Shown here: positions 3,749 through 47,979 of the stretch, piece after piece
Numbering within the stretch: position 1 is the first letter of the stretch
Layout of the letters: every line of letters starts with the position of its first letter
From: Escherichia virus TH58
Direction: 5' to 3' (one strand)
DNA: 64,000 nucleotides
Sequence record: MT446423.1
Program-made: the position numbers and the translations under genes
Notes under the pieces: generated by a model
What the model was told of the DNA's origin: nothing
Databases searched by the model: none
What the model saw: the letters and a program-made list of their open reading frames with translations, nothing else

Positions 3749-3766
3749 GGGAGACCGAAGTCTCCC
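3749..3766 (-). terminator. hairpin GGGAGAC-CGAA-GTCTCCC; T-run on minus strand (gene 23 terminator)
   Basis: Stem-loop directly downstream of gp23 stop on minus strand followed by U-run in that orientation. Confidence 0.55.
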
Positions 3767-3795
3767 ATAAGGTTATGTATTTTAACGTTAAAGCA

Positions 3796-5364
3796 TTAAA
3801 TTCCTTTAACGTAGACGCGTCTAAAGTAAGCGTTCTTACCAAGGCTGTTCAGGATAGACGGCATACCGGACTGGATGCGAGCACCTGGAGCCTGCAGGGA
3901 ACTTTCAGCAAACGGGTTAACACCGATACCGTAACGAGTTTTAAAGCCCATTACCGGCTGGAAGTTCTTAGGATCGGAACCACGCAGTGGGGTAAGTGCA
4001 ACGTAAGGAGCATAGTAAATACCTGCATCCATTTCGTTAGCGCCTTTGTAACCAACGGTGAAGTAATCCTGTTTAGCATACTGGTCGATGTATACGCGGT
4101 ATTTACCGCCAAGTACACCGGCAAATACAGACTTAGTAGTGTCGGTATTAAAACCAGAAGCCAGACCCTGTGCAGCATAAGAAATACCAGTATCAACTGA
4201 AGCCAGTACGTTAACTACGTTACGGGAAGCGATAATGAAGTTACCTTCACCACGACCGGTTTGACGAGCAATTTCAACTGCTTCTTTATCAATCTGGAAC
4301 AACAGAGCTTTAAAGCTTTCACCGGCCCAACGAGCACCACGGATATCAATCGGGTCCTGGAAGTCAAATACACCAGCTTTAGAACCAACGATATTAGTCA
4401 TACCAGATTTACCAACCTGAGCGGAGTAGTTAATCCAGTCAACAACTTCACGGTTGATTTCCAGCATAATTTCAGTAGCAAGAATACCACTCAGTTCAGC
4501 ATCAGCATCCATACCGTGTACTGCACGGAGGTCTTGTGCCAATTCGATAGAGTAAGCTGCTTTCAGCTGACGAGATTTAGCTTCAATAACTTGTTTGTCG
4601 ATACGGAAGCCCATTTCGTTCCACGGGTTGTCGGTAGAACCATTGAAGCCTTCCTGAAGTTCAGCGATAGAAGTAGCCATACCTTCAGCGATTTCTACCA
4701 GTGCACCAGCTTCCATTTGTTTCTTAATTTCAGCGTCTAATTTAGTTGCATCGGTAGCGCCAGCATCAATTGTTACTACAGCGGAAGCTTGTAGATACAC
4801 AGTACCAGTGTCCTGGAAGAAGTGAGTATAGATATCACCTACAACGGTTTGTGTGCTATCAGCCAGAAGTGGGAATTTCTTAGCAGCACCCTGACCAGAG
4901 AACATCGCGTCCGGAGCATACATCGGATGGAAAGCTTCTTTAGCGTCAGCAGCGATAGGGTCTTTACCATATACTGCACGGAGAGCAAATACCTGACCGG
5001 TAGGGCTGTTCATAGGCTGAACACCACAAATATCAAAAGCGATCAGATTAGGAATAGCACGACGAACCATACCCATAACTGCTGGCCCAATTTGGGTTAC
5101 TGCACCAGAGGTTTGACCTGCTGCGATGTTCTGAGCATTATAACCATGGTCCCCACCAATTTCAGCTTCGGTCAAGAAAGAACCAAATGCCTGAGCGATT
5201 TTCTCGTCTTTATATTCAGGGGATACTTCGAAATCTTTTTCCTGGTTTTCGAAGATTTTAGCGATAATAGCCTGCTTGCTATTAGCGATTTCCGGCAGGC
5301 CTTCACCTTCCAGCAGTTCTTTCCATTTGTCTACGAGCTGAGCTTTAGTTTTGATAGTAGTCAT
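3796..5364 (-). CDS. 23: major capsid protein gp23
   Basis: 522 aa; N-terminus MTTIKTKAQLVDKWKELLEGEGLPEIANSKQAIIAKIFENQEKDFEVSPEY matches T4 gp23. Confidence 0.95.
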   Translation of the reverse strand: MTTIKTKAQLVDKWKELLEGEGLPEIANSKQAIIAKIFENQEKDFEVSPEYKDEKIAQAFGSFLTEAEIGGDHGYNAQNIAAGQTSGAVTQIGPAVMGMVRRAIPNLIAFDICGVQPMNSPTGQVFALRAVYGKDPIAADAKEAFHPMYAPDAMFSGQGAAKKFPLLADSTQTVVGDIYTHFFQDTGTVYLQASAVVTIDAGATDATKLDAEIKKQMEAGALVEIAEGMATSIAELQEGFNGSTDNPWNEMGFRIDKQVIEAKSRQLKAAYSIELAQDLRAVHGMDADAELSGILATEIMLEINREVVDWINYSAQVGKSGMTNIVGSKAGVFDFQDPIDIRGARWAGESFKALLFQIDKEAVEIARQTGRGEGNFIIASRNVVNVLASVDTGISYAAQGLASGFNTDTTKSVFAGVLGGKYRVYIDQYAKQDYFTVGYKGANEMDAGIYYAPYVALTPLRGSDPKNFQPVMGFKTRYGIGVNPFAESSLQAPGARIQSGMPSILNSLGKNAYFRRVYVKGI

Positions 5365-5381: not shown

Positions 5382-6194
5382 TTAGAAACGAGATGCGACT
5401 TTCGCATATAAACTTACATTAGAATTCTGTTCTACCTGAGTTGTGGTAGTGTCAACTGCTTCGGCAACAAAATTAAGACCGGCAGCGTCATTGTCAACTG
5501 TATTTATATTTTCGGTAATAGCGGCTTCTTCTTTAGTAGAACCTTTAACCATTTCTACAATAGCAGTTAACTTAGTACCAAATGCGTCAGAATAATCCAT
5601 ACCTTCAACCAGGCCAATAACTTTTTCTTTCTGAGATTCAGTCAGGTCTTTTACACTTTCATTAATAGCGGTTTCACGCTGAACGTAATTGATATATGCA
5701 TCACGTTTGGTAACTTCTTCGAACAAACGAGCGGTTTCTTCTTTATGTTCGGCCAGCTCTTCTTCCATTTCTGCTACAACATCTACAGATTCTTCTGGAA
5801 CGACAACGTTATGTTCAACAAACAGTTCTTTCAGACCACCAAGCATGGATTCGAACAAATCAGCTTTAATGCCTTTATCAACTGCGATTTGGTTTTCTGC
5901 GAGCCATTCTTTTGCAAGATGGTCTAGGAATTTAGAAGCTTGTTCAGCCAATTTTTTATCAGCTTTCTCTTCAGCATCTTCTTTAGCCTTTTCAACTTCT
6001 TCTTCAGCCTTTTCGGCGATGGCTTTGATATGAGATTCAGCCAGTTTGACTGCTTCCTGCTTAACGGTGGCTTCGAATACAGTGCTGAAATTAGCTTTAA
6101 CGTCCGGAGACAGTTCTACTGATTCGAAAACACTATTAAGAGCAACTGAAGTCTCGATGTTCTGAGCTTCTTTCAAAAGTTGTTCTTTGATCAT
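5382..6194 (-). CDS. 22: prohead core scaffolding protein gp22
   Basis: 270 aa, acidic coiled-coil-rich; position and size as T4 gp22. Confidence 0.8.
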   Translation of the reverse strand: MIKEQLLKEAQNIETSVALNSVFESVELSPDVKANFSTVFEATVKQEAVKLAESHIKAIAEKAEEEVEKAKEDAEEKADKKLAEQASKFLDHLAKEWLAENQIAVDKGIKADLFESMLGGLKELFVEHNVVVPEESVDVVAEMEEELAEHKEETARLFEEVTKRDAYINYVQRETAINESVKDLTESQKEKVIGLVEGMDYSDAFGTKLTAIVEMVKGSTKEEAAITENINTVDNDAAGLNFVAEAVDTTTTQVEQNSNVSLYAKVASRF

Positions 6195-38596: not shown

Positions 38597-39061
38597 ATGA
38601 AATCATACGCTGAATTTTTGACTGAACAATCTAGTTCAGATGTAAAAGCCGCTGCGATTGCAGCAATTCGAGCAGGTAAATATTCTTACAAAGACGCCTC
38701 TGATGAAGAACGTTTCCGTTTTATTAGAGATTTTAAAGCCGAAGGTTTTACTAATGCTAATACTGTTAGCCGAGTTTTTAAAAGCCTAGCTGCATCAGGT
38801 GAATTGTTCCAGAAAGCTACAGGTAAAGCACCTGCGCCAAAAGCGGACCCTAAAGCCGCTCAAGAAAAAAATATCGCCAAAGGAATTATTTCTAAGTATG
38901 AAGCAATTCTTAAAGAGCTTTTAGTAATCAAATCAGAAGGCCAGAAACTGGCACGAGCACATAGCTTCAAAGATAATCCTCACGCTCATAGCCTTGAGTA
39001 TGTTGAAGATATCCAAAAACTTATTAAAGACCGTATCTGGTCTGCTAAACAAATTAAATAA
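38597..39061 (+). CDS. internal-protein-like protein with capsid-targeting sequence
   Basis: N-terminus MKSYAEFLTE resembles the targeting motif; 154 aa. Confidence 0.5.
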   Translation: MKSYAEFLTEQSSSDVKAAAIAAIRAGKYSYKDASDEERFRFIRDFKAEGFTNANTVSRVFKSLAASGELFQKATGKAPAPKADPKAAQEKNIAKGIISKYEAILKELLVIKSEGQKLARAHSFKDNPHAHSLEYVEDIQKLIKDRIWSAKQIK

Positions 39062-40066: not shown

Positions 40067-40660
40067 ATGAACACACTAAAGAAACTTGTTGAATTCATCC
40101 GCACTAAACTGGGTACTGCTATGGCTAAAAATCTGACTGTCGAAGAACAGTATAACGCAGCCGCAGATAAGTTGATTACCCAAATCAAAGAACTAAAAAC
40201 GGCTTCTGTTAAATCTATTAATGAAGAAAAACGTATTCGCGAACTTGCTAATGAAAAGAACAAGCAAGCTGCTTCTAAGGAACGTGAAATTCGTAAGCTC
40301 CTGGCTGAAGGACAAGATGTTACCATGCATGCTAAGCTTGGTCTTCTGTATCGTCGAACTGCCGAACAACTTAATACAAAAGCTGCCGGGTATGCCGCTA
40401 TGCGAATTGAAATTGCTCGTAAGGTGGTTGAACTTGATGATGCTCGTCAGAATCTGGCAATCAAACTCGAATACATTCGTGAAACTCGAGCAGCTAATGC
40501 CCTTGGTATCTCTACGGCTGATGATGTAATTGAAATCGCTGCACTGACTAAGGTTGATATCGAAGACACTCTGACTCGTGTTGAAACGTTCAATGGCACT
40601 CCAACCGGTGTCGAAACCACTTCTGCTGATGTACAAGAATATATTAACTCTTTGAAATAA
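40067..40660 (+). CDS. coiled-coil protein (weak PspA/IM30-like character)
   Basis: 197 aa, almost entirely heptad-like helical sequence. Confidence 0.4.
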
Positions 40661-40668
40661 AATAATAC

Positions 40669-40691
40669 GGAGGACTCCGGTCCTCCTTTTG
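40669..40691 (+). terminator. intrinsic terminator GGAGGAC-TCCG-GTCCTCC plus TTTT
   Basis: Perfect 7-bp stem then T-run after the coiled-coil gene. Confidence 0.65.
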
Positions 40692-40709: not shown

Positions 40710-41306
40710 ATGCGAAACCAAAATAATGATATTGACTCGATGTTCGAAGAGTTCCGAAATAAGGTAAATCCACCTACGTCTTTAGTTGATTCATTACGAT
40801 ATATTGCAACTGGACGTAAATGGTACTGGTCGTCTTCTTATGAGACAACTGAATATGCAAATAACCGAAAATCTTTATTAGCCCCAGGTATTATGATTCA
40901 TGATATCGGAGCTATTGCTAAACTAGTTGCAGACCATGATATTAGATTCACTGATTTCGTTGCTCCTACGTGGTCTGTTTGTTGTTTAAACACTGAATGG
41001 GACTATATCAGTGAACGCTCTGAAGATTATTATGGTTTTAGAGATAAGCTCTTAAGGTCTAACATGTTTTATATCGATACTGAAGTCCTAGTCGATAATA
41101 AAAAATATTACTTTACGTTAATCGTCGATTCTGAAACTATGTATGAAGGCAAGCCTTTGCTTAAAAGAGTTGATGCTTTAAGTGCTATTGATGCGCTTTA
41201 TGAAACTATGGTTGTTAGTCCTAATTTCACTAACAATTTAATCCTTGAGCAATTTATTATGGAATGTAGAGAATATGTCAAAGCCAACCCTATACATGCC
41301 AAGTAA
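40710..41306 (+). CDS. hypothetical protein ending in FIMECR motif
   Basis: AAGGAG RBS then ATG 40710; 198 aa. Confidence 0.45.
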   Translation: MRNQNNDIDSMFEEFRNKVNPPTSLVDSLRYIATGRKWYWSSSYETTEYANNRKSLLAPGIMIHDIGAIAKLVADHDIRFTDFVAPTWSVCCLNTEWDYISERSEDYYGFRDKLLRSNMFYIDTEVLVDNKKYYFTLIVDSETMYEGKPLLKRVDALSAIDALYETMVVSPNFTNNLILEQFIMECREYVKANPIHAK

Positions 41307-41670
41307 GCCCTGGGCATACGAATACAAACGTAAATTAATTCCTAATGAAGTGTTGTTTGGTCCTATTTTAGCTTTAGCATTTTTAATCTTTATGATTATA
41401 GGAGCTATTTTAGATTCCAATAAAGTTATATCGTCTGATGCAGTGTTTTTACTTATTATAGTCGGGTCGTTTATTGTACCATTTTTATTAATGCCTATTA
41501 ACTGGGTGGGATATTGGTACCAAGGACGTCATCATAGAGCCCGATTAAGAGAATGGAAAGTTCAGTGCGCAAAAGCCCAAGCTCAGTATGACGAAGCTGT
41601 TAAAAAGTATGAATATGAAGAAGCTATGGAATTCGTTAAGGAAATAAGATGCAAAAGCCTCAACTCTTAA
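41275..41670 (+). CDS. small membrane protein ending in FVKEIRCK motif
   Basis: About 131 aa with two TM segments. Confidence 0.45.
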   Translation: MSKPTLYMPSKPWAYEYKRKLIPNEVLFGPILALAFLIFMIIGAILDSNKVISSDAVFLLIIVGSFIVPFLLMPINWVGYWYQGRHHRARLREWKVQCAKAQAQYDEAVKKYEYEEAMEFVKEIRCKSLNS

Positions 41671-42008
41671 CCGTATGGCCTTCTCTTGGTGAGAACATTC
41701 TAATTTTTATTATGAGTATTGGCATGGGATTTGCCTTTGGACTAGTTGGATTTCTTATTGACGGTGTTGTGTTAGGATTTATAGGGAACACCGGTGGATT
41801 CACAGACCAATGGCAGGACTTACGGTATACCCAAGCCTTTGCATCCATCGCATCCTTTTGTACTGTAGTCTATTTTTACTATGATTTTATAAGCCATAAC
41901 AAGAAAAATAAAAAGGTTTACGCTTCTCAAATGATTAGTTATAATGAACTCCTAGCTAGACGTGAAAATGAAACAATAGAAAACTTTATTAAGGAATGTA
42001 GAAAATGA
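41649..42008 (+). CDS. small membrane protein ending in NFIKECRK
   Basis: 119 aa with two TM segments. Confidence 0.45.
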   Translation: MQKPQLLTVWPSLGENILIFIMSIGMGFAFGLVGFLIDGVVLGFIGNTGGFTDQWQDLRYTQAFASIASFCTVVYFYYDFISHNKKNKKVYASQMISYNELLARRENETIENFIKECRK

Positions 42009-42310
42009 GTAAGATTATTGAAATTAAAGTACCAGAGTTTAATGATGCCAAATCCGCTTCAGATGCAATTTATAAACTTCTGAATCAAGCTGAACGTATC
42101 GAAGAAGAGGCAACAAAGATCGCAGACCAATACGCCGTATCATTTTCTGTAGGTGATTATGGTAGCGGTCGTACTTATTATCCTAAGGGTGAAATCGTAT
42201 CCCAGTGGATGAAAGATGAAATTGAAAATAATGGTGGCGATGTTAAGCGTGAAGGTAATGGTTACGTTATTACTGAAGGTGCTTGGGTTTCGTCTTCTGC
42301 GTTGTGCTAA
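42005..42310 (+). CDS. paralog 1 of tandem trio (C-terminus GAWVSSSALC)
   Basis: 101 aa. Confidence 0.45.
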   Translation: MSKIIEIKVPEFNDAKSASDAIYKLLNQAERIEEEATKIADQYAVSFSVGDYGSGRTYYPKGEIVSQWMKDEIENNGGDVKREGNGYVITEGAWVSSSALC

Positions 42311-42321
42311 GGGGAATCATT

Positions 42322-42594
42322 ATGTCTAAAGAACAAACCGAACTGGCTGAAGCTGTAGCAAAAATCTATGCAGCTATTGAGGCTGCCAAAGAAATTGCTG
42401 ATAAACAAAACACAACATTCGACTTGTGTCCAGCTTATGGTATGGGCGGAACCTATCATTCACCCGGACAACTTAAAGCCGATCTTGAACGTTGTACAAA
42501 AAACGGCTATGCTGAATGGGCTGACGTTTACCAATACGACTACAATCTGAGCCTCGAAACTGGTGGTTGGATTGCATCTTCTCACACTTGTTAA
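42322..42594 (+). CDS. paralog 2 of tandem trio (C-terminus GGWIASSHTC)
   Basis: About 90 aa. Confidence 0.45.
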   Translation: MSKEQTELAEAVAKIYAAIEAAKEIADKQNTTFDLCPAYGMGGTYHSPGQLKADLERCTKNGYAEWADVYQYDYNLSLETGGWIASSHTC

Positions 42595-42603
42595 GGAAAC
42601 CAT

Positions 42604-42801
42604 ATGTCTCGTGAATTAGATTGTGCTGTACGTACGGCAGTAGCTGCTCTGGAAAACCTGTTCCAAATTGCAACAGAAGAACGCGAAGAAGTTACATTAT
42701 GGATTGAAGATAACGCAGGTCTGAATCTCCAGAACGCAATCTCGGTATCAAATAATAGTATTACTGTTCAAGGCTGGGTATCATCTAGTTATTCTTGCTA
42801 A
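42604..42801 (+). CDS. paralog 3 of tandem trio (C-terminus QGWVSSSYSC)
   Basis: 65 aa. Confidence 0.45.
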   Translation: MSRELDCAVRTAVAALENLFQIATEEREEVTLWIEDNAGLNLQNAISVSNNSITVQGWVSSSYSC

Positions 42802-42805
42802 AACA

Positions 42806-42836
42806 GTTTACAACAAGATAGGGCTATGTTATAGTA
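42806..42836 (+). promoter_or_regulatory. early promoter cassette (GTTTAC ... TGTTATAGTA) with inverted repeat
   Basis: GATAGGGCT / AGTCCTATC arms around the -10. Confidence 0.5.
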
Positions 42837-42863
42837 GTCCTATCAAATTAAATGGAGTCCACA

Positions 42864-43103
42864 ATGATTTATTACGAAAGTGTTGGAACCAAAGTGGTTG
42901 GTAAAACCATTACTCGTGAAAAGTTTGCTAAGATATTCGATATGCGTTATAAAAAATCTGAACACAAAGGCATTCGATTCGAAGATGCGCACTGTACAAT
43001 TTGCCCTTATAATGAAGACATAAATGGTACAATCGTTCCATTGGTAGAGGCTTCACACGATGACCTCTGGGATGAATATGATATCGCATGTCGTGAAATT
43101 TAA
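42864..43103 (+). CDS. hypothetical protein
   Basis: GGAG RBS then ATG 42864; about 79 aa. Confidence 0.4.
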   Translation: MIYYESVGTKVVGKTITREKFAKIFDMRYKKSEHKGIRFEDAHCTICPYNEDINGTIVPLVEASHDDLWDEYDIACREI

Positions 43104-43131
43104 GTTAATGAATTAATCCGAGGAAAATATT

Positions 43132-44088
43132 ATGATGTTAGTTATTGGTTCTCGTGCACTTCACTATCACGGTCTTATTGATTCTAATGCTATCAAAAAT
43201 AGTGACTGGGACTTTATTGCAGACCAAGGTTCTTGGAATGCATTTAAAAATCAAATGATGGGTGTATATGTTCATCAAGATAACCCTGATGTCCAAGTTT
43301 TCAAATGCTTCCATAACGGACGCGAAACTCATTTTGAAGCATATATTGTTCCGGCAATCACTAATGTCCGTGAATTAGTAGGTGAACTCACTCCTGAAGA
43401 TTTCACGTCTTCTTATGACCTTTTAAAATACGCCAAGAAAAATTTGTCTAAAGATCATTTGAACGGGTTTTACTGGGCAACTCCTGAGATGTGTCTTGCA
43501 ATTAAGATGTCTCATCGTTTCAAGAAAAATAATCCATTCTTTTTAAAGACTATGAACCATATTCAGTATCTTCGTGGTAAAGGTGTTACACTGAACGATG
43601 AACTTACTGAAATTATGCTGAAACGCCAGAAAGAAACCTTGAACTATGCTCACCCAGTTCTTGACACTTCTAAAAGTGCGTTCTTTAAAGATGACATCTA
43701 TACTTATGACCATGATACTATTCATGAAGCCATTGCACTAACAGACCGTCCAGCGTATACATTTTATATGAAAGACGGTTCTGAAGTCATGACCTCACGT
43801 GAGAAGTTCGAATCATTACCAGAAATGGTCAAATTGGCCGGTGTATATGAAGAATCATGTGTACTAGCATTAGAACGTTCTCAGATTCCTAATGACTTTA
43901 AAATTAACCCTGAAGCCAGTTTTATGATGGCATTGGAAAAAGTCTGTACAAGCATCACCTCCGGTTGGTTCCGTGAGTACGCATACGAGAACTATTATGA
44001 AGTAGTGGCTATGTATCATAAGCTCGGCAAAAATGATTACGTCAAACGTTTCAAACAAAATTTCCATATGGTAAAACCTTTCAAATAG
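43132..44088 (+). CDS. hypothetical protein, possible nucleotidyltransferase fold
   Basis: 318 aa; N-terminal VIGSRAL...SDWDFI loosely resembles a GS...DxD motif. Confidence 0.4.
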   Translation: MMLVIGSRALHYHGLIDSNAIKNSDWDFIADQGSWNAFKNQMMGVYVHQDNPDVQVFKCFHNGRETHFEAYIVPAITNVRELVGELTPEDFTSSYDLLKYAKKNLSKDHLNGFYWATPEMCLAIKMSHRFKKNNPFFLKTMNHIQYLRGKGVTLNDELTEIMLKRQKETLNYAHPVLDTSKSAFFKDDIYTYDHDTIHEAIALTDRPAYTFYMKDGSEVMTSREKFESLPEMVKLAGVYEESCVLALERSQIPNDFKINPEASFMMALEKVCTSITSGWFREYAYENYYEVVAMYHKLGKNDYVKRFKQNFHMVKPFK

Positions 44089-44100
44089 TTTCGCAAAGCT

Positions 44101-44131
44101 GTTTACAACATGATAGGACTATGTTATAGTA
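44101..44131 (+). promoter_or_regulatory. early promoter cassette (GTTTAC ... TGTTATAGTA) with inverted repeat
   Basis: ATAGGACT / AGTCCTAT arms around the -10. Confidence 0.5.
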
Positions 44132-44158
44132 GTCCTATTAAAACATGAGGAGAATATT

Positions 44159-44464
44159 ATGAAATTAGGCGAAACCAACCGAATTGGTCTTTTAACAATA
44201 TTTGCATCACCTTTTTACGCAGCTCTTTCTGTTGCAGTATTACAAAAGGCTTACGATATGGATGGTGTTCCTGGTTTTGTATTCTTATCGCCGTTTTTGC
44301 TATTCGTTGGAGCATTGTTATTATATGCCACGACTAGTTTCGACCATAATGTCTGGGTCAATTATAAATGTAAATTGTCTGAAGAAGAACACGCGGAAGC
44401 TCGTAAAAAAGCTATTGAATCTACCAATCTAGAAAATTTCATTAAAGAATGTCGAGGAAAATAA
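44159..44464 (+). CDS. small membrane protein ending in NFIKECRGK
   Basis: 101 aa with two TM segments. Confidence 0.45.
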   Translation: MKLGETNRIGLLTIFASPFYAALSVAVLQKAYDMDGVPGFVFLSPFLLFVGALLLYATTSFDHNVWVNYKCKLSEEEHAEARKKAIESTNLENFIKECRGK

Positions 44465-44465
44465 T

Positions 44466-45152
44466 ATGAATAGTTCTAAAGTGTTTAATAGTCAAGCTCG
44501 TGCAGTAGGTGGTTTTGCTCATGCGATTAAAAACGACCAGATTAAAAACGAGCCTATGTTCTTTAACTGTGATTTGAATTTTGCTTTTGATAATGGCGGC
44601 CCAATTACTCGTAGCTTTATCCAAAATCTTCCCGACGATTGGAAAGACTCGGATGTAGTATTTGATTCACGAGTTCACATGCTGATGCCTGGTTGGTATC
44701 CTGCTATTCCTGGATATCACCATGATGATGTTCCTCGCCCTGATATTCCAGTTGGTCAACACTTTATTACTGCAGGACAACCTGATTATGACAACCCTCG
44801 TTACCATTCTGAACATATTCTTGGTCTTGTTAACGCTGATGTGTGTCCTACTCATTTTGCAACAGGAACTGCAGAGTTCAGTCAGATTCCTGATGGCGAA
44901 CTTATCTATCGCCAGTGGCACAAAGAAGTCCTCGAAAAAATCGAAAAAGGCGAACTAGAGAAATGGGAAGCTCCAGATCATACTCTTCTTCAGTTTGATT
45001 GGCAAACATGGCACACTGGTTCTCGTGCAATTAGTAATGGATGGCGTTGGTTCGGCCGTGTATCTCGTAATACAGACCGAGTTAAAAAGATTACCAATGA
45101 AATTCGTGTCAACGCTCAAGTTTATCTGGAATTCCCTATGGAAGGCTGGTAA
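44466..45152 (+). CDS. hypothetical protein (weak HxD...H pattern)
   Basis: 228 aa; YHHDD and WHTGSR motifs. Confidence 0.4.
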   Translation: MNSSKVFNSQARAVGGFAHAIKNDQIKNEPMFFNCDLNFAFDNGGPITRSFIQNLPDDWKDSDVVFDSRVHMLMPGWYPAIPGYHHDDVPRPDIPVGQHFITAGQPDYDNPRYHSEHILGLVNADVCPTHFATGTAEFSQIPDGELIYRQWHKEVLEKIEKGELEKWEAPDHTLLQFDWQTWHTGSRAISNGWRWFGRVSRNTDRVKKITNEIRVNAQVYLEFPMEGW

Positions 45153-45631
45153 TGATTAACAATAATATAGACGATGGCAATGAAGGTATTTCATACTATT
45201 CAGTAGATTGGACAGGATGTCCATCCTACTTAGTGAAACATATTTGCCAAGAATTTAAAATCGACCAGCCAGCAGGTATTATCGTGAACAGATACATTAA
45301 TGGATATCAACCTATCGATGAAGTAATACGAACAACTCAAGCTGAGCTTGAAAGGTTTTTCAATAAGTGCCAATGGATAACAGGATGGATTATATTTGTA
45401 CCATCTATATGGTTTTTCAGTACTAAGGTGAGTTCTTTCGGTTTTGTTGATATTATTGCTATCTTATTAGCATCTAGTATCATAAGTGTTGTTGGTGGCA
45501 TCATCGGCGGCGGTACCGCCGCCATCATTATTAATCTTATTAAAAGTAGTTTACAAGAACATAAAGACAAGATAAAGGCCAAGAATAATGAAGTTGAACG
45601 TTTTATTACCGAATGCAGGAATTTGAGATGA
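45152..45631 (+). CDS. membrane protein ending in RFITECRNLR
   Basis: 159 aa with glycine-rich TM segment. Confidence 0.45.
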   Translation: MINNNIDDGNEGISYYSVDWTGCPSYLVKHICQEFKIDQPAGIIVNRYINGYQPIDEVIRTTQAELERFFNKCQWITGWIIFVPSIWFFSTKVSSFGFVDIIAILLASSIISVVGGIIGGGTAAIIINLIKSSLQEHKDKIKAKNNEVERFITECRNLR

Positions 45632-46346: not shown

Positions 46347-46835
46347 ATGAATATATTTGAAATGCTTCGTAATGACGAAGGTCTTAGACTGTCTTTATAC
46401 AAAGACACTGAAGGCTTTTGGACGATTGGCATAGGTCATTTAGTAACAAAGAACCCGTCTTTAGCCGTAGCTAAAGCTGAACTTGACAGAATGATCGGAC
46501 GTAAATGCAATGGTACAATTACCCTTGATGAGGCTGAAAAGCTATTTAATGAAGACGTTGATAAAGCCGTTCGCGGAATCTTGGGTAATGCTAAACTTAA
46601 ACCGGTATATGATTCTTTAGATGCAGTTCGTCGATGTGCATTGGTCAATATGGTCTTCCAAATGGGTGTAGCAGGCGTCGCTGGTTTTACTAATTCTCTT
46701 CGTATGCTTCAACAGAAACGTTGGGACGAAGCGGCAGTAAATCTAGCCCAATCTAAATGGTATCGTCAGACACCTAATCGCGCGAAACGCGTAATCTCAA
46801 CATTTAAAACAGGAACTTGGAAAGCGTATATATGA
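46347..46835 (+). CDS. e: endolysin (T4 lysozyme)
   Basis: N-terminus [32 protein letters not shown] matches T4 lysozyme; 162 aa. Confidence 0.9.
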
Positions 46836-47113
46836 AAACATATAGTGAATTTTTATCAGAATCTATTCTTAACGAAGCTACTGACACATTTGCAACTAAG
46901 CTAGGTGCAGCTTTGGTTGAAGCTGAAAGTCTATTAGCACGTATTTCTGAACTTGCTAGTAAGATAGATACTCGCAAATTTGAGCGCACCAGTGATATCG
47001 TTAAGCTTGAAGCCTTGTTGCGTATGTGCGATAAACCGGAAGAAATCGCTAAGAACGGCTCGCTGATGAAACAACGTCTTGAAAAATATATTTCAGGCGC
47101 TTCAGAAAAATAG
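46832..47113 (+). CDS. internal protein with capsid-targeting sequence
   Basis: N-terminus [10 protein letters not shown]; ATG overlaps e stop (ATGA). Confidence 0.55.
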
Positions 47114-47676: not shown

Positions 47677-47979
47677 ATGAAAACATATCAAGAATTTATT
47701 ACTGAAGCGCGAGTGAGTGCAGGTAAATTAGAAGCCGCTATAAATAAAAAGGCCTATTCATTTCACGATTTGTCCGATAAAGACCGTAAGAAACTTGTAA
47801 GCCTTTATATTGACAAAGAGCGTATTCTCGCTCTTCCTGGCGCTAATGAAGGTAAACAGGCCAAGCCTTTGAATGCTGTCGAAAAGAAAATTGATAACTT
47901 TGCTTCTAAATTCGGTATGTCTATGGATGACCTTCAGCAAGCGGCTATCGAAGCAGCTAAAGTAATTAAAGGTAAATAA
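47677..47979 (+). CDS. internal protein with capsid-targeting sequence
   Basis: N-terminus MKTYQEFITEARV; 100 aa. Confidence 0.55.
   Translation: MKTYQEFITEARVSAGKLEAAINKKAYSFHDLSDKDRKKLVSLYIDKERILALPGANEGKQAKPLNAVEKKIDNFASKFGMSMDDLQQAAIEAAKVIKGK

Follow-up and report, generated by a model that had tools for sequence, protein, structure and literature searches.

Short docking peptides at the C-terminus are shared by otherwise dissimilar proteins in several systems, such as the clamp-binding tails of bacteriophage T4 gp43, gp33 and gp55, the SSB tail, the C-terminal peptide of FtsZ and the MIM helices of ESCRT-III. The internal proteins of T4 carry a short signal at the opposite end, an N-terminal capsid-targeting sequence (CTS) of the form MKTYQEFI(A/T)E that is removed by the gp21 protease after I-x-E, and proteins of the PspA family are associated with small membrane anchors (PspB and PspC with PspA, LiaI with LiaH). 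PspA and Vipp1 are themselves relatives of ESCRT-III (PMC8281802). At the DNA level, the hyperplastic regions of T4-type genomes contain recombination linkers named PeSLs, for promoter-early stem-loop (Arbiol et al. 2010, PMC2839356; Comeau et al. 2014, PMC4122927). Here we analyze a stretch of 64,000 nucleotides from Escherichia virus TH58 (sequence record MT446423.1; hereafter, the window), in which five genes located between the homologs of T4 e.6 and nudE present, at or near their 3' ends, variants of a short sequence encoding a peptide akin to FIKECR. A preliminary description of this repeat had interpreted it either as the conserved tail of a paralogous family or as a portable gene-junction sequence working as a recombination linker. 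The comparison with related phages points instead to a short peptide, maintained at the protein level, that most likely serves as a docking tag for a set of early proteins.

The repeated tail in the window and in related phages

All five copies of the motif are found on the + strand, where the preliminary description had placed them. Gene 1 (40710..41306, phrog_2607), the T4 e.5 homolog, encodes a protein of 198 aa with no transmembrane (TM) segment and contains FIMECR at 41253-41270 (TTTATTATGGAATGTAGA). Gene 2 (41275..41670, phrog_2604), the e.4 homolog, encodes 131 aa with two TM segments and contains FVKEIR at 41632-41649 (TTCGTTAAGGAAATAAGA), and gene 3 (41649..42008, phrog_2330), the e.3 homolog, encodes a membrane protein of 119 aa with FIKECR at 41985-42002 (TTTATTAAGGAATGTAGA). 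FIKECR is also found at 44438-44455 (TTCATTAAAGAATGTCGA) in gene 4 (44159..44464, phrog_9798), a Mosigvirus-restricted ORFan of 101 aa with two TM segments, and FITECR at 45602-45619 (TTTATTACCGAATGCAGG) in gene 5 (45152..45631, phrog_2203), an e.2 of the RB69 type whose 159 aa comprise a soluble N-terminal domain and membrane segments. The identity of genes 1-3 was established from the annotation of phage ATK47 and by direct comparison with T4, gene 1 aligning with T4 e.5 over its full length at 48% identity. TM-like hydrophobic segments were detected in genes 2-5 and not in gene 1, in agreement with the assertion that all but one of the five proteins are small and membrane-bound. The motif is followed by only a lysine codon in gene 3 and by NLR in gene 5. 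The assertion that it forms the last 6-8 codons of each gene does not hold for genes 1 and 2, where it is followed respectively by 11 codons (EYVKANPIHAK) that overlap the start of gene 2 in another frame, and by six codons (CKSLNS) that overlap the next gene, also in another frame.

At the DNA level, the copies resemble each other only loosely: no more than three of them fall within three mismatches of the consensus, against an expectation of 0.25. At the peptide level, the pattern F[IV].E[CI]R has exactly five occurrences in the six-frame translation of the 64 kb, for a chance expectation of ~0.2-0.27 (computed from residue frequencies or Markov simulations) and a maximum of two occurrences in 100 simulations. 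The five matches, all on the + strand, belong to real genes, stand 1-11 codons before the stop and are contained within 4.4 kb. The repeated tail is hence real and highly non-random. That it sits on otherwise different proteins, as initially proposed, is borne out by their assignment to five separate PHROG families and by pairwise BLAST, in which only the last 9-15 residues align.

Positions 40.6-46.4 kb of the window align over their full length with Mosigvirus genomes (HX01, JS09, ATK47 and the RB69 group) at 93-96% identity and, judging from this similarity, the phage is a T4-like Mosigvirus of the RB69/HX01 type. In T4 itself, tails are encoded by e.5 (EKFVKECREYVKAITIPSK, KFVKECR), e.4 (MKFVKESRCKSQS, KFVKESR) and e.3, which ends in KEFVIDCRKIK, and other Tequatroviruses encode a 162-aa e.2 protein ending in NNFITECRKLK. 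The tail was also found in Gaprivervirus RZ, Dhakavirus WG01, Kanagawavirus ZX14 and PEi20, Marfavirus PWKp16, Moonvirus CF1, Biquartavirus avDM5 and RB43, always on the gene following e.6 and, in most of them, also on several later genes up to nudE, which include a class of soluble proteins of 92-109 aa that is missing from the window. Three metagenomic T4-like contigs present 4-6 tails each, and degenerate tails (IIHQAR, AIHEAR) were identified in Serratia phage WSPA. Altogether, the tail is found in at least 11 T4-like genera.

Two irregular loci were observed among these relatives. The e.2 gene of the T4 reference is split, with respect to another Tequatrovirus, by a 1-nt deletion and a 1-nt insertion located ~75 nt apart with a stop between them, and an unannotated 53-codon open reading frame (ORF) between e.2 and nudE (T4 67472-67633, - strand) still ends in NNFITECRKLK; the split may be genuine, with a frameshifted segment, or stem from an old error in sequencing. 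In OLB35 (MH992122, a record marked UNVERIFIED), locus positions 3760-4130 contain duplicated chimeric pieces in which the C-terminal region of e.3 is joined to a second e.4 tail, and which may be an assembly artefact.

Tails were compared across 77 proteins from at least seven classes, with Phi(-3)-x-x-F-[I/V]-x-x-C-R as the resulting consensus. All 37 proteins of the e.5 family have F, I/V and C, and 35 of the 37 have R, while in the remaining classes F/W is found in 36/36, an aliphatic residue in 35/36 and R/K in 36/36. Between 1 and 25 residues separate the motif from the C-terminus, mostly 1-7 in the classes other than e.5 and most in the e.5 family, a placement at an accessible end of otherwise unrelated proteins that is typical of short linear motifs. 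When e.5 sequences of eight phages from seven genera are aligned, only six columns are invariant, three of which are the F, C and R of the tail. An exhaustive hidden Markov model search against 1.84 billion representatives returned 34 e.5 relatives, and the motif was present in all 26 of the remote relatives that were read (down to E = 1e-4), 3-25 residues before the C-terminus. In the complete T4 genome, the ORFs with a minimum length of 40 codons in all six frames (120,895 residues) contain the pattern [FW][IVL]..CR three times, always at the C-terminus and always within the e cluster.

Peptide conservation and a putative docking tag

The codons used at the conserved positions of the tail are highly variable. 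Arginine is encoded by all six of its codons (AGA, AGG, CGA, CGT, CGC and CGG) across the collected tails, phenylalanine by TTT and TTC, cysteine by TGT and TGC, isoleucine by three codons and valine by four. Since synonymous codons vary freely at conserved residues, selection acts on the peptide, and not on the DNA or the RNA. The likeness of the copies at the DNA level is what results from encoding the same residues with the preferred codons of an AT-rich genome, to which a Shine-Dalgarno (SD) sequence is overlaid. A structured RNA was also considered and rejected, as no Rfam match was obtained in the 38-48 kb region.

When projected on a helical wheel, the conserved hydrophobic positions of the tail cluster on one face, with Phi(-3) at 200, F at 140, Phi(+1) at 240 and C(+4) at 180 degrees, all within an arc of 100 degrees, and the tails of the membrane proteins have hydrophobic moments of 0.53-0.64. 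We infer that the tail forms an amphipathic helix. Lys and Arg abound in the segments that follow the last TM helix, so that the positive-inside rule predicts a cytoplasmic location for the tails of the membrane proteins, as would be the case for those of the soluble carriers.

The best overall explanation, to which we assign a probability of about 0.6, is that the 18-nt sequence is the coding sequence of a C-terminal peptide, Phi-x-x-F-[I/V]-x-x-C-R, borne by early proteins encoded from e.6 to nudE and acting as a common recognition or docking tag. The carriers comprise both soluble proteins (the e.5 family and the 92-109-aa class) and two-TM inner-membrane proteins that appear unrelated to each other (the e.4 and e.3 classes, e.2, the Mosigvirus ORFan and others), and the tag would bring them to one shared partner. 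A short, one-sided C-terminal helix that is found on unrelated proteins and is nearly invariant over long divergence makes docking to a common partner the most likely function of the tail, at somewhat better than even odds. The reading best supported by the sequence comparisons is that of a C-terminal motif, conserved as peptide, that marks a functionally linked set of early proteins.

Several observations weigh against this interpretation. The motif is not uniform, for the e.4 class presents I, S, V or M in all genera where Cys stands elsewhere. The AlphaFold2 model of gene 1, in which residues 177-192 form a helix that includes the tail with low confidence, is poor (its predicted local distance difference test score is 55), too much so for searching by fold. 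In phage NRG-P0074, the tails of genes 4 and 5 are intact even though e.6-e.3 are missing at the locus, and T4 has no intact e.2; the tail proteins hence do not constitute one obligate complex. Apart from the PeSL papers, the literature searched yielded nothing relevant, be it about a shared tail, about C-terminal motifs in phages of the T4 type or about what e.2-e.6 do. Finally, some of the carriers resemble each other beyond the tail: profile comparison with hhalign, with tails trimmed, assigned a probability of 88% to the match between e.2 and the small membrane protein following it in ZX14 (m106), the e.4 and e.3 proteins of T4 and Mosigvirus all begin with M-[SQ]-K-P-x-L, and the profiles used are shallow (1-6 sequences each), which leaves room for an ancient paralogy of small membrane proteins.

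The e.6 homolog of the window (40067..40660, + strand, 197 aa) is the upstream neighbor of gene 1, from which it is separated by a terminator-like hairpin (40669..40686, + strand), and e.6 adjoins the first tail gene on its upstream side in every locus for which upstream DNA is available. In avDM5 and RB43 the whole set is reduced to e.6 and one e.5-like gene. Because e.6 is the only gene that always accompanies the motif, its product, a predicted coiled-coil protein, is the best candidate for a partner, albeit a weak and speculative one. The structural model of e.6 consists of an N-terminal helix and a long predicted helical hairpin, and the top 11 PDB matches of this model in a Foldseek search were ten Vipp1/PspA structures and one archaeal ESCRT-III protein, CdvB2. 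In sequence-based searches, none of 25 e.6 members matched PspA_IM30 at E <= 5, an e.6 profile matched Vipp1 in the PDB only weakly (E = 0.6-5), and sequence searches against the PDB were empty for both e.5 and e.6. That the e.6-nudE genes might encode one hitherto undescribed membrane-associated system, in which exchangeable soluble adaptors and small anchors of the inner membrane would dock via the tail onto a putative PspA/Vipp1/ESCRT-III-like e.6 scaffold and recruit or regulate it, and in which new anchors such as the Mosigvirus ORFan would arise by tail capture, is a conjecture that we regard as doubtful. A candidate substrate relationship was also considered, with the tail as the target motif of a putative 2-oxoglutarate/Fe(II)-dependent (2OG-Fe(II)) oxygenase of 228 aa encoded downstream of gene 4, and was rejected on the grounds that T4 lacks that gene and has kept its tails.

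Gene duplication, translational signals and DNA linkers

Among the alternatives, the one that survives best is ancient tandem paralogy, whereby a single ancestral gene would have been duplicated repeatedly and the bodies of the resulting proteins would have diverged beyond recognition, leaving the constrained tail as their only recognizable part; in e.5 and the small soluble class, the tail would then be a later acquisition, through fusion or replacement in frame. The genes are indeed adjacent and co-oriented, the e.4 and e.3 proteins share, in addition to their N-terminus, a layout of two TM segments, a charged helix and the tail, and the 88% match of e.2 has a parallel in the 65-70% obtained within the e.4 class across genera and in the duplicated e.5 copies of metagenomic loci. 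Genes 3 and 4, moreover, encode the same eight residues (ENFIKECR) with four synonymous differences, which suggests recent copying within Mosigvirus. Outside the tail, neither BLAST nor the trimmed profiles gave signal for ordinary paralogy among the five proteins. Once their tails were removed, 40 proteins from 11 genera were partitioned by BLAST into 21 clusters, and trimmed hhalign comparisons yielded probabilities no higher than 6% between classes, apart from the matches mentioned above, with 3% for e.3 versus e.4 and a maximum of 6% for gene 4 versus any other class. These values are below those of negative controls, in which unrelated T4 membrane proteins reached up to 20%, and far from the 90% obtained for orthologous e.5 proteins across genera. 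The carriers also have at least three architectures (soluble proteins of ~200 aa, soluble proteins of ~95 aa and two-TM proteins). On these comparisons, simple paralogy is not supported. Its ancient form, which we deem rather unlikely, would account for the origin of the tail and not for the near-invariance of the tail alone across 11 genera, for which a functional constraint would still be needed.

A second group of alternatives stems from the position of the tail immediately upstream of another gene. Of 39 tail junctions, 36 leave no gap between the stop codon of the tail gene and the next gene, which overlaps or abuts it. An SD-like tract (AAGGA, GAGGA or GGAG) is contained within codons 3-4 of the motif (K-E, K-G, E-E or M-E), 6-11 nt before the ATG, in 16 of the 39 junctions, and is provided by the Arg codon and the one following it in about eight more. 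In the window, the tail had been described as supplying an AGGA-type ribosome-binding site (RBS) for the next gene, and this is the case for genes 2-5, with a spacing of 6-9 nt; gene 1 has no clear SD sequence, and the part of the motif involved differs among the others. The AAGGA of the gene 2 tail, formed by its K-E codons (AAG GAA), is the SD sequence of gene 3, whose ATG overlaps the Arg codon. In the tail of gene 3, AAGGA precedes the next ATG by 9 nt (an ATGA overlap at 42005), and in gene 5 the AGGA is formed by the Arg and Asn codons (AGG AAT), 7 nt upstream of the ATG at 45628. The last codons of gene 4 (CGA GGA AAA TAA) constitute the conserved RBS GAGGAAAATAAT that serves the 228-aa gene downstream, one form of the GAGGAAAATATT-type RBS that precedes this gene in most other genera, whatever gene lies before it. 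The next ATG had been placed within 5-15 nt of the motif. It was found 17-28 nt past the first base of the Phe codon, that is, from a 1-nt overlap with the motif to 10 nt beyond it.

This arrangement could mean that the motif is conserved as an RNA-level ribosome-binding or coupling signal for the downstream gene, which would account for the frequency of K-E and K-G at positions 3-4. Such a signal is very unlikely to be what is conserved. The invariant F, I/V, C and R lie outside the SD sequence and are synonymously variable, no Rfam family is matched, and the register is not fixed, the distance from motif to next ATG ranging from 17 to 106 nt. Furthermore, three tail genes (CF1 m112, avDM5 e.5 and WG01 s109) are uncoupled, 43-72 nt separating them from the gene that follows, and have kept F-Phi-x-x-C-R. 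Overlap with the SD sequence hence accounts for the purines in the center of the motif and for a large part of its likeness at the DNA level; given that uncoupled genes keep the motif and that the distance varies, it is an added layer and not the cause of conservation. The RBS overlap is, in short, real but secondary.

Marginally less probable still is a role for the nascent peptide in slowing termination or pausing the ribosome to promote re-initiation on the overlapping gene. Conservation of the peptide in the vicinity of the stop, at 1-7 residues from the end in most tails outside e.5, and the presence of an overlapping start after nearly all tails would be compatible with such a role. The stop, however, lies anywhere from 1 to 25 residues away, farthest in the e.5 family, which has the best-conserved motif, and the motif is retained by the uncoupled genes. 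No likeness to known arrest peptides was found, nor was one tested for.

The least probable of the alternatives is the portable DNA junction, in which the 18-20 nt would provide short homologies for the exchange of modules in the manner of PeSLs. Three observations are in its favor: copies 1 and 3 are identical at 17 of 18 nt, a perfect tail is present on a genus-restricted ORFan (gene 4), and the tails of genes 3, 4 and 5 coincide with, or shortly follow, the starts of blocks conserved between genera (41979, 44444/44454 and 45601). These block starts are explained by the juxtaposition of divergent membrane bodies with a conserved tail and a conserved downstream gene. The proposal is contradicted by the free variation of synonymous sites, by the absence of the tail from all other T4 gene junctions, by the location of recombination breakpoints elsewhere and by the lack of significant concerted evolution. 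The exact DNA motif TTTATTAARGAATGTMGA, scanned in the 2.9 million viral contigs of IMG/VR, was found at 42 loci; it was in frame and C-terminal in Mosigvirus contigs only, and all but two Mosigvirus contigs represent chance matches that fall out of frame, in the middle of an ORF or off gene ends. Nucleotide identity among tails of different classes was 0.539 within genomes and 0.523 between genomes, a difference that was not significant (permutation p = 0.075); such tails of the same genome are therefore not significantly more alike, and there is no sign of ongoing conversion among them. The DNA linker hypothesis is thereby largely refuted.

Two other elements of the region do resemble PeSLs. 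Near-identical cassettes are located at 42803..42860 and, directly upstream of gene 4, at 44098..44155 (both on the + strand), each consisting of a GTTTACA - 17 nt - TATAGT promoter (TTTACA-17-TATAGT) and a hairpin (ATAGGGCTA/ATAGGACTA ... TAGTCCTAT) that overlaps the -10 element. A promoter scan detected strong sites at 42807-42835 and 44102-44130 and none at the tails, which lie inside ORFs and present no terminator-like hairpin. The first cassette coincides with the left edge of homology with phage NRG-P0074, a true recombination boundary, and at the second one a 262-bp extra gene is inserted in SSE1 and ATK47. The indel breakpoints mapped among Mosigvirus relatives fall at 42805 and 44101-44108, in the cassettes, or at 41665/41916, inside e.3, most of which is removed in phiE142 by a 250-bp deletion (locus 5391-5403); no indel breakpoint was located in any tail in the relatives compared. 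The occurrence of indels at the PeSL-like cassettes and not at the tails fits the published role of PeSLs (PMC2839356, PMC4122927).

Neighboring genes and comparison with known systems

The tail-bearing cluster of the window is followed downstream by nudE, the lysozyme gene e and denV. Gene 4 has homologs in 149 phage records, all of them Mosigvirus and each at least 80% identical. Neither gene 1 nor gene 5 matched the local Pfam library; precomputed assignments exist for PF26876 (Phage_T4_Y06P) on P0019, a protein 93% identical to that of gene 1, and on T4-type e.5 proteins, and for PF26896 on proteins 86-97% identical to that of gene 5, including RB69 e.2. PF26876 (e.5) and PF26896 (e.2) are recent Pfam families of unknown function. 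Within gene 5, a GC-rich perfect palindrome (GGCGGCGGTACCGCCGCC, 45506-45523), encoding GGGTAA in a membrane segment, was flagged by the terminator scan, yet it lies inside coding sequence. The 228-aa protein encoded downstream of gene 4 (44466-45152) is strongly conserved and bears a 2OG-Fe(II) oxygenase label in one record, with no match in the local Pfam and NCBIfam libraries. A 318-aa DUF7277+DUF7275 protein, encoded at 43132-44088, is conserved in most Tevenvirinae loci examined, and T4 lacks both this gene and the one for the 228-aa protein. Three small genes in tandem (42005-42310, 42322-42594 and 42604-42801; phrog_899, phrog_4882) encode proteins with the C-terminal pattern G-x-W-[VI]-[SA]-S-S-x-x-C, in which Cys is the last residue, and 3-5 such paralogs occupy the same place in every Tevenvirinae locus examined. 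Their Ser-rich run and terminal Cys are reminiscent of the precursors of modified peptides.

T4 is the best-studied virulent phage, yet its genes e.2-e.6 have no function on record. A nearly invariant tag found in 11 genera on otherwise dissimilar proteins suggests that these hypothetical early genes belong together functionally, and the tail offers an experimental handle in the form of a 9-residue peptide and three point mutations. The case also illustrates how a nucleotide repeat at gene junctions can mimic a mobile DNA element while being a protein motif with an overlaid SD sequence, a distinction that is useful when phage genomes are scanned for recombination linkers such as PeSLs. PeSLs, the nearest precedent for the linker proposal, are like the tail short conserved sequences that recur where genes meet in hyperplastic regions of T4-like phages. 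They are, however, intergenic, combine a sigma-70-type promoter with a terminator hairpin and are conserved as DNA, whereas the tail is coding, synonymously variable and free of indel breakpoints.

The CTS, in concept the closest precedent within T4, resembles the tail as a short terminal peptide shared by otherwise unrelated T4 proteins, all of which it directs to a common destination, and its EFITE is superficially similar to RFITEC. The CTS is N-terminal and cleaved and has nothing equivalent to the invariant C-R of the tail, which is C-terminal and is carried mostly by integral membrane proteins. The resemblance to the I-x-E target of gp21 was rejected as an explanation of the tail, since the Glu is replaced in other genera by G, H, Y, M, Q, N or S and C-R is kept. 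Three ORFs of the window (38597-39061, ~46832-47113 and 47677-47979) do begin with MK[ST]Y.EF[IL].E, starts that we take to be CTSs, and at least three internal-protein-like genes presumably flank the e cluster.

A parallel with the membrane anchoring of PspA by PspB/PspC, or of LiaH by LiaI, may be drawn from the location of a gene for a coiled-coil hairpin protein (e.6) beside those of small inner-membrane proteins with predicted cytoplasmic C-terminal helices; we consider it improbable that the analogy extends to function. A further likeness is with docking peptides, which are typically motifs of ~6-10 residues at the extreme C-terminus of unrelated proteins, often form an amphipathic helix and address one hub. 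Mimicry of the FtsZ peptide (I-P-A-F-L-R-K) would be a conceivable lead. Phi-x-x-F-[IV]-x-x-C-R, by contrast, is not known to match any of these docking consensus sequences, and its carriers are encoded side by side in one cluster. The tail may be best described as a shared terminal recognition peptide of an unusual kind, the carriers of which are the products of adjacent genes and combine soluble and membrane proteins.

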